Shown piece by piece: positions 43,328-45,136 of a stretch of DNA of 64,000 nucleotides. The stretch's first letter is position 1, and every line of letters begins with the position of its first letter. Made by a program: the position numbers and the translations under genes. Source of the stretch: Naegleria gruberi (lineage: Eukaryota); NCBI GenBank assembly GCA_000004985.1, contig GG738898.1. The stretch is one strand, 5' to 3'. Below the pieces are notes generated by a model. That model was not told the DNA's origin and made no database searches. It worked only from the letters and a program-made list of their open reading frames with translations.

Positions 43328-45136
43328 TTACTTGAGAAGAATCTTTAAATTATCATTCTTTAGTGAAGGTGGATTTGAGTCTGACTGTCTCAATATAGAA
43401 TCTAAACCCTCCTCAAACAAATATTTGACAAATGACTTGTCAATTGCAGACATTTCATACATGTGAATTGACTTTTTAGACTTCAATTCCGTTCTAATAA
43501 TGTTATAGAACAATCTTCCAATATATTTCCTACTATTATCGAAAACATTTTGTGGTTCTGTTGATAAATTAATTCCTCCTGTCGATGCGGTTATTGTGGT
43601 GAATGCAGAAACATGGAAACCTTGCTTCTCAAAATCTGGAAATATCACAGAGATTGACTTGTCCTTTTCCTCAATCTTTTCCTTAAAAACATCCATCTTG
43701 TTGAGTACAATTACAAATTCAGATTCCAAATTTCTCATATTCATCTCTTGACAAACAGATTTTAACACTTCAATGGATTCTTGAAGTTTGTTCTTATTTT
43801 TCTGATCACACGAATTGACATCAAAATCAGCCACTGAAACCACATAAACAATCACATCAGGTTTGGCTTCCAATAGAAGGGCCCACTTTTTTCTTTCACA
43901 TCTCTCACCACCAGTATCGTAGACTTTCACAACAGTGGATTTACTAATTTTCACATCCACTGAATTGATACCAGTTGTTTGCACTCTCATTTTAAAATAA
44001 TCATCTTCAGTTGCTATTATTATTGCATTCGAATCACATTATTCTAAACGTGGAAATTACTTACGTTTATAATCTTCCTTGAAAATTCTATTGATATTCT
44101 TCATGAAATAGACAATATTTTCACTAATATGAAAATTAAAATCCGTAGCATTCATAAATAAATATCTCACAGCATTATTCCTCCAAATTGCCTTGATATC
44201 CGATTTCAATTCTTTCAAACCTCCTTCATAATCAATATGCCAACTTCTCTCATTCATCGTCTTGGTCGAAATAAACTTGATCCTATTCACAATCTTTTCC
44301 TCTGCCTTGTTCCATTCGAATTGGAAAGAAGAAATGAGTGAATTTCTTCTCCTATTTTCATTACTCATATTCATATTCACATCAAATTGTTGTTGTTGAT
44401 TGATTTCATCATTGGCAAATGTTGTCCTTCCTCTATTGAATAGTGATGGTTTTTGAGAATCGTTACTTGTTGTTTTTGAAGTTAATGGACTTGATTGACC
44501 TAAAGAGGAAGGAGACAAACCTGATGAAGATGTAGAAGCACTTGATGTTTCTAATAGTTTAGAATGTCTCATTGCAGTGCTAACAGCACTAATTCCCAAC
44601 AAGGAATCATCACCAAGAGCATTTTCATCAAAACTATTCGAAAGTATAGAACGATCACTAAATTGTGAAGGATTGCTCTTTACAAGATTTATCAATTCAT
44701 CAGAAAGTCTTCTATCATGTCTCGTACTCGCCTTTCTCTCTAAATTCGGCATTGATGTATTCGAAACCGCCTCTCTACTAGCACTTGTAATTGCGTTGCT
44801 GCTGCCATTATTATCAGAAAGTAAACTATTGTTTGCCACAAATTGTTCCATAAATTTTATGGCCCTCTTGATGTGATGAACAATTTCATACTGAAGTGAA
44901 GTTTTAATTAAAATTCGATTTTCTTGCGTTGAATGAAAATTACAAAATTGAGCATTTCCATATAACGATCGACAACTTTTGAAAATTGTGCTTTTACCAC
45001 TTTCGGAAGTACCTAATAGTGCAACTACTGGGATGGTGTGGATGGTTGTTGTTGATGAGGGAAATGGAAATGGTGGAGATGAAGTTGTTGGTGATGGTGG
45101 AACCATTTTTTTGATTTTAAAATTGGCAGATGACAC
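43328..45136 (-). CDS. divergent heterotrimeric G-protein alpha subunit, 2 exons
   Basis: Exon 1 is 45136-44065 and exon 2 is 44013-43328, with a 51-nt GTAAGT…AATAG intron. The protein has LLGTSESGKSTIF (P-loop), YKPTEDDYFKMRVQTTGI (switch I Arg present), DTGGERCERKKW (switch II with Glu at the catalytic Gln position) and NKMD. A ~190-aa Ser-rich insertion lies in the helical domain. There is no N-terminal MG. Confidence 0.8.

Follow-up and report, generated by a model that had tools for sequence, protein, structure and literature searches.

We asked what is encoded at positions 43328-45136 of a 64,000-nucleotide (nt) stretch of Naegleria gruberi DNA (contig GG738898.1 of assembly GCA_000004985.1; this whole stretch is called the window below). 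The initial annotation had seen there, on the minus strand, a divergent G protein alpha subunit (G-alpha) with Glu in place of the catalytic Gln of switch II, and a separate Ser/Thr kinase gene 33 bp downstream. Does a G-alpha of this kind stand next to a kinase or is it part of one, and what could it do there? The locus is a single three-exon gene, NAEGRDRAFT_72548, and its spliced translation of 970 amino acids (aa) is identical to the annotated protein XP_002672374.1 (EFC39630, D2VU62). We are highly confident that the G-alpha and the kinase form one fusion gene.

The translation start is the ATG at 45106, to which the start previously placed at the GTG at 45136 was corrected. Splicing of intron 1, whose position is matched in N. 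fowleri and N. lovaniensis, joins the open reading frames (ORFs) 44057-45136 and 43328-43990 and restores the G-alpha signature, EDYK being followed by PTEDDYFKMRVQTTGI. The apparent stop of the G-alpha (TAA, 43328-43330) and the apparent start of the kinase (ATGATG, 43290-43295) both lie inside intron 2, which nearly equals intron 1 in size and ends, and the removal of which fuses ...NLKILL with NDNGVSD... in frame. The spacer between the two supposed genes is thus a conserved phase-2 intron, and its in-frame splicing gives the annotated protein. With a GTAAGT donor in phase 2 an immediate stop arises automatically, and a stop codon within GTAAGT is a warning sign when Naegleria sequence is read by eye. 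A conserved intron retention, yielding a stand-alone G-alpha, was considered and ruled out, the stop being absent in N. lovaniensis, where the donor is GTATGT and is followed by a read-through of 27 codons; the N. fowleri donor is likewise GTATGT.

Each of the two ORFs is complete alone, with the in-frame TAA followed 32 nt further downstream by the ATGATG, and prokaryote-style gene callers predict the kinase ORF by itself (P0002). These features would suit two genes, a 575-aa G-alpha ending at the TAA and an independent 400-aa kinase starting at the ATG at 43295. However, this TAA is embedded in a consensus donor, the ATGATG falls within a 50-nt intron, and the splice is in frame and was adopted by the reference annotation. 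The comparison between species argues in the same direction. When the ortholog proteins were each mapped to their own genomic locus, the junction intron was found at the identical codon and phase (after ILL/ILV) in four species, namely the three Naegleria species and Willaertia, while its length is 174 nt in N. fowleri versus 73 nt in N. lovaniensis. In N. fowleri and N. lovaniensis, exon 3 continues for 27 conserved codons after the acceptor (25/27 identical, no indel) before the first Met of the kinase ORF is reached. In Acrasis the junction intron is lacking and one uninterrupted exon (L004, 4987-6336) codes for the G5 strand, α5, the linker and the entire kinase. Environmental gene calls (P0088, P0094 and P0061) likewise cross from the C-terminal half of the G-alpha into the kinase, each in a single ORF.

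The distribution of this architecture was examined by an exhaustive HMMER search with the 970-aa query against 1.84 billion representative proteins. The top matches carrying both G-alpha and Pkinase domains were Willaertia magna KAL9656511.1 and Acrasis kona KAL0478712.1, and the same two-domain architecture is present in N. fowleri XP_044566632.1 and N. lovaniensis C9374_000833. The fusion is therefore conserved across heterolobosean amoebae. Among the best 150 matches only members of this family combine the two domains, and the architecture appears confined to the heterolobosean lineage, as far as the searched library shows. Both the gene models and the Pfam domains assigned to them can be found in public databases, where the proteins bear no other label than "predicted protein" or "non-specific serine/threonine protein kinase".

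The annotated N. lovaniensis ortholog (836 aa) begins at 6001 of L001 (PYSW02000011.1) and omits the P-loop, and an ORF with this motif (LLGCSDSGKST) is found at L001 5558-5992. Exon 1 of N. fowleri maps to L001 5310-6627 in three reading frames, with two frame changes within low-complexity runs. The missing N. lovaniensis P-loop is likely due to assembly indels or a truncated model and not to a real loss. An environmental family member was also found on a Logan contig from SRR22387979 (L006, 191-1777), which is cut within the G-alpha domain; its kinase has HGD in place of HRD and is followed by a SAM domain.

The identity of the G-alpha domain is well supported. Pfam G-alpha (PF00503) matched the 575-aa product with an E-value of 8e-59 (199.9 bits against a cut-off of 48.8 bits), and 353 solved G-alpha chains were matched by the domain, the best being the N. 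fowleri and Entamoeba G-alphas 8vga and 4fid. The top Foldseek matches of the AlphaFold2 model include Gαi1 structures, and the model places helices at residues 61-97 and 252-355, between β1/α1 and the switch-I strand, as an inserted all-helical domain. By MAFFT, the G1-G5 motifs GTSESGKST, RVQTTGI, DTGG, NKMD and SAID all align with the motifs of human Gαi1. The switch II segment DTGGERCERKKW aligns with DVGGQRSERKKW, by HMMER for the solved G-alphas and by MAFFT for human Gαi1. Both methods put Glu opposite Gln204 (the Gln of DVGGQR), as had been proposed, and neither places a catalytic Gln elsewhere. The retained Arg of switch I, aligned to R178 of Gαi1, was likewise confirmed.

A sequencing error at the Glu codon was considered as well and is ruled out, because the Naegleria relatives also encode Glu with synonymous codon variation (GAG in N. 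fowleri, GAA in N. lovaniensis); in all, three Naegleria genomes and the environmental sequence P0025 encode Glu. A word-indexed search for N. gruberi G-alpha paralogs, made with the trimmed family profile, returned distant G-alphas only (≤28% identity) and no Naegleria paralog. Stand-alone G-alphas deviating at the same site were seen in other lineages: that of Mycena albidolilacea (KAJ7336750.1, P0175) has an identical DTGGERCERKKW, and P0005, P0168, P0176 and P0178 have Glu, Ala or Val at the Gln site, some of them also lacking the Arg finger. As the retrieval favours shared 5-residue words, the frequency of such non-Gln proteins is not informative. Additionally, P0016, P0043, P0114 and P0127 are proteins of 670-738 aa with two complete tandem G-alpha domains.

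At both of its ends the domain departs from G-alphas that work in heterotrimers. The protein begins with MVPPSP, so that the MG of the N-terminal lipidation motif is absent, as first noted, and 26 Pro/Ser/Thr-rich residues precede β1, in which AlphaFold2 predicts no helix (an upstream exon being possible). The αN helix and an MG start are lacking in all members; the orthologs have 8-100 non-helical residues before β1, which in Willaertia and Acrasis begins 8 residues from the N-terminus. At the other end no free C-terminal tail follows α5 (residues 540-555), which runs on into a linker of about 125 aa leading to the kinase; α5 passes into the linker in all members. The linker is mostly disordered with conserved islands, NP.S.K.DN.(K/R)IL(L/V), SD..S, and LTPEEEE followed by a helix. 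The lack of an αN helix, a lipidation site and a free C-terminal tail should leave the domain unable to serve as a receptor-coupled, Gβγ-bound heterotrimeric subunit.

The kinase domain matches Pfam Pkinase (PF00069) with an E-value of 3e-45 and contains GLGAQG, VMK, the αC motif NEIK, HRDLKPEN, DFG and SPE; judged by these motifs, it is predicted to be catalytically competent. Among solved sequences PKR comes nearest (E 8.5e-27), followed by NEK1/2/7, and PKR is just about 15 bits above NEK1. The eIF2α kinases other than PKR fall short of E 1e-20, the names of the next-best sequence matches are heterogeneous, and Foldseek gave generic Ser/Thr kinase matches only. A disordered insert lies at residues 758-776. 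All members share the kinase signature GGQG.xY(I/L)V ... (F/Y)VMKR(I/V/M).

The residues on which hydrolysis depends vary across the family. At the position of Gαi1 Q204 the three Naegleria species and P0025 have Glu, Willaertia has Asp, Acrasis Gln and L006 Lys (DMGGKRNERKKW). At R178, Naegleria has Arg, Willaertia and Acrasis have Tyr, and L006 shows no canonical RxxTxG[IVLF] in a regular-expression scan and Tyr by eye. At G42, Naegleria has Ser, Willaertia Gln and Acrasis Gly. Every member thus lacks the catalytic Gln, the Arg finger or both. Gln204 and Arg178 stabilise the transition state of hydrolysis in G-alpha, as known from the Gαi1 and Gαt structures. No full-length member deviates in the P-loop Gly-Lys-Ser/Thr, in the Thr that binds Mg or in the Asp and Gly of DxxG, and the three Naegleria species have kept G1 (GxSxSGKS), the Thr of switch I, DxxG, NKxD and G5 (S/C-A) intact. 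Between N. fowleri and N. lovaniensis the ratio of nonsynonymous to synonymous substitution rates (dN/dS) is 0.04 in the helical part and 0.07 in the Ras-like part, with 0.11 in the linker, 0.016 in the kinase and 0.39 in the insert. The G-alpha domain is under strong purifying selection and is not decaying, and the linker and the kinase are strongly constrained as well.

The initial annotation had stated that Glu at this site typically cripples GTPase activity. The single substitution does not carry the argument so far, the literature on the corresponding Ras variant Q61E being conflicting: one study found its hydrolysis reduced, like that of other Q61 mutants (PMC6813200), while increased intrinsic hydrolysis is reported elsewhere (PMC2987813), and a search for a GTPase measurement on a G-alpha Gln-to-Glu variant found none. 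What can be argued is impaired hydrolysis at the level of the family, where the case is stronger because every ortholog is without Gln, Arg or both, and also because the Naegleria P-loop has Ser at the position of Gly42 (Gly12 in Ras). This position is linked to slow hydrolysis in Gαz and in Ras G12 mutants.

Considering these features together, we propose, with an even chance of being right, that the domain is a hydrolysis-impaired, nucleotide-binding G-alpha module which regulates the kinase. It would bind guanine nucleotide and hydrolyse GTP slowly or not at all, and it would probably be a poor substrate for GTPase activators of the RGS type. It could then govern the attached kinase in cis, either as a switch whose nucleotide state or conformation persists for long or by docking. 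A G protein and its effector would in this way be merged into one polypeptide, in a manner analogous to the Roc GTPase controlling the kinase in ROCO/LRRK2. More tentatively, and with somewhat less than even confidence, the family may represent a new signalling class, in which a G-alpha without Gβγ and receptor interfaces and without efficient hydrolysis is a GTP-dependent switch that is part of the same polypeptide as its kinase, made long-lived and RGS-insensitive by the Gln-to-Glu and Gly42-to-Ser changes.

Several observations weigh against this proposal. The G-boxes are degenerate in Willaertia (TKND, and YIPTLGL in switch I) and in Acrasis (NKRT), so that nucleotide binding may not be family-wide. 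Ras Q61E has also been reported to have an increased intrinsic GTPase (PMC2987813, citing Frech et al. 1994). The full-length AlphaFold2 model, with a mean predicted local distance difference test (pLDDT) of 60 and a predicted template modelling score (pTM) of 0.37, is informative on domain boundaries only and silent on contacts between the G-alpha and the kinase. Finally, an exact look-up of the 970-aa product among assembled transcripts gave no match, so that splicing of intron 2 in N. gruberi is unsupported by transcripts; the sole extra contig (L002) is genomic, with intron 2 retained.

The degenerate G-boxes of Willaertia and Acrasis, and the free variation of the catalytic sites (Glu, Asp, Gln or Lys at the Gln, Arg or Tyr at the Arg), would also suit a pseudo-GTPase, a G-alpha domain that has given up binding or cycling nucleotide and is left only to scaffold or localise the kinase in a static way. 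Plant XLGs are a precedent in that they work with low or no GTP affinity (PMC8584482). Nevertheless, we consider this unlikely, since all G-boxes are intact in the three Naegleria species, the dN/dS of 0.04-0.07 shows constraint, and the nucleotide- and Mg-binding residues listed above do not vary in the full-length members.

Conversely, Glu could be a working catalytic residue, and an active, perhaps faster GTPase would then time the kinase and reset itself, instead of being a switch locked on. The increased activity reported for Ras Q61E speaks for such a timer, as do the Arg finger and complete set of G-boxes retained in Naegleria and the Glu kept there through synonymous change; the characterised N. 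fowleri G-alphas are, moreover, self-activating (PMC9283941). The earlier finding of reduced Q61E hydrolysis and the Ser at Gly42 stand against it, and sister lineages get by with Asp or Lys or without the Arg, which speaks against selection for catalytic activity. We hold this reading to be quite improbable. Two separate genes, for which the silence of the transcript look-up might be taken to speak beside the completeness of the two ORFs, are very improbable given the conserved junction intron, the absence of a stop at the N. lovaniensis donor and the single ORF of Acrasis.

To the preferred reading, that of a kinase governed by its own G-alpha module, the Naegleria proteins add a further element. 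The long low-complexity stretch reported between the P-loop and switch I is real and Ser-rich, although its length is 166 aa rather than about 190, and it follows helix αA. It is predicted to be disordered (pLDDT <50 across residues 96-261) and is Naegleria-specific, being not present in Willaertia and Acrasis. Within this otherwise fast-evolving insert, three islands, RH(D/G)RRLSD, AMRH..LL and R(R/K)R.S...F.EW, are shared by all three Naegleria species; two of these are reminiscent of RRxS phosphorylation sites of basophilic kinases, and the insert is probably a phosphoregulatory loop, as far as these motifs allow one to say.

The protein was compared with known systems. With canonical G-alphas (human Gαi1 and those of N. 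fowleri and Entamoeba) it shares the Ras-like and helical domains and an alignable P-loop, switch I Arg and Thr, DxxG, NKxD and G5, at about 22-28% identity; it differs in having no αN or lipidation site, in the C-terminal linker and kinase, in the Glu, in the Ser at Gly42 and in the 166-aa insert. Stand-alone non-Gln G-alphas such as that of Mycena have the same switch II 12-mer and keep the Arg finger, but have about 350-600 aa and no kinase.

ROCO proteins, among them LRRK2 and the Dictyostelium Roco kinases, likewise unite a domain that binds GTP with a Ser/Thr kinase in a single polypeptide. By analogy, the G domain of the N. gruberi protein would be expected to regulate its kinase in cis. 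It is, however, of the G-alpha type with a helical insert domain and not a Roc domain, and a disordered linker lies between the two domains. Pfam gave no match to Roc or COR in the 970-aa protein at E ≤0.01, only G-alpha and Arf-type similarity being found, and no leucine-rich or ankyrin repeats; because neither Roc nor COR was detected, the protein is not regarded as ROCO-related.

Plant XLGs and other atypical G-alphas likewise have deviant catalytic or nucleotide motifs within larger proteins. XLGs have an N-terminal Cys-rich extension with a nuclear localisation signal, pair with Gβγ and carry no kinase, whereas the N. gruberi protein has a 26-residue N-terminus, a C-terminal kinase and intact G-boxes. 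GRKs also join a domain of the G-protein pathway to a Ser/Thr kinase, in their case an RGS domain and an AGC kinase, while the N. gruberi protein has the G-alpha in place of its regulator and a kinase nearest PKR and NEK. Fusions of RGS domains and kinases arose convergently several times (PMC3971589).

A review (PMC8584482, citing Anantharaman et al. 2011) counts about 44 G-alphas in N. gruberi and reports deviations of the catalytic motifs in Naegleria and the loss of N-terminal tethering residues in some. Because such deviations are reported there, the divergent G-alpha without catalytic Gln that was first singled out here belongs to an already noted class. Those N. fowleri G-alphas that have been characterised are of ordinary size (PMC9283941), and the 13 N. 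fowleri G-alphas of Bosch et al. 2022 are given by AmoebaDB accessions, which could not be mapped to FDP41_011780. No paper describing a G-alpha-kinase fusion was found in a literature search that did not extend to Anantharaman et al. 2011 (Gene 475:63), the paper likeliest to list G-alpha architectures; the gene is not mentioned in the Acrasis genome paper and its supplements. A more fitting description of the protein is that of a G-alpha-domain kinase conserved in Heterolobosea, a variant of the atypical G-alphas and of the GTPase-kinase fusions.

The features of the gene are collected in Table 1.

Table 1. Features of the NAEGRDRAFT_72548 gene and of its product, in positions of the window.
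Feature	Position	Strand	Content	Basis
Exon 1	44065..45106	-	Pro/Ser/Thr-rich N-terminus, β1, P-loop, α1, αA, insert, most of the helical domain (to ...KEDYK)	Splice reconstruction, annotated product, Pfam G-alpha
Intron 1	44014..44064	-	51 nt, GTAAGT...TAG, phase 1; between ...EDYK and PTEDDY, directly ahead of switch I	
Exon 2	43332..44013	-	Ras-like half: switch I, switch II, NKMD, G5 SAID, α5; start of the linker	
Intron 2	43282..43331	-	50 nt, GTAAGT...TAG, phase 2	
Exon 3	42093..43281	-	Remaining linker, Ser/Thr kinase domain (residues 685-970, 42096-42953), stop 42093-42095	
Linker	42954..43375	-	Residues 561-684 (about 125 aa), with intron 2 inside	
P-loop GTSESGKST	44987..45013	-	Ser at the position of Gαi1 Gly42 / Ras Gly12	Alignment to Gαi1
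Insert	44324..44821	-	Residues 96-261, 166 aa, Ser/Asn/Thr-rich (23% Ser), after helix αA in the helical domain	
Switch I MRVQTTGI	43967..43990	-	Arg finger and Mg-binding Thr present	
Switch II DTGGERCERKKW	43883..43918	-	Glu codon GAG 43904-43906 at Gαi1 Q204	
G4 motif LNKMD (NKxD)	43691..43705	-	Intact	

Downstream of the fusion gene, a two-exon gene for a protein with a SAS-6 N-terminal-like domain (41210-42076, plus strand) is convergent with the kinase exon, the two stops being 16 nt apart (kinase stop 42093). N. fowleri and N. lovaniensis have this neighbour beside their orthologs too, a conserved synteny. A gene downstream of the SAS-6-like one (39896-41008, minus strand) is an exact match to the 370-aa "predicted protein" EFC39629, whose repeats look Sel1/TPR-like by eye. 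Coding stretches of the window have a GC content of 33-35%, which fits N. gruberi. The segments 2001-6000 and 30001-34000 are at 0.21-0.25, versus 0.30-0.38 in most other parts, and may be intergenic or repeat-rich.

Work on G-alphas has almost always dealt with free subunits that are lipid-anchored and partner with Gβγ and receptors. A conserved family whose G-alpha is wired to a kinase, is without the heterotrimer interfaces and can do without either catalytic residue would show another use of the G-alpha fold, that of an intramolecular regulatory module. It would also offer a simple system for the role of the G-alpha switch once GTP hydrolysis is no longer under selection, and a comparison for the coupling of GTPase and kinase in ROCO/LRRK2. 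The family includes a member in the pathogen N. fowleri (FDP41_011780), in which kinases and G-protein components are under consideration as drug targets (PMC9283941).

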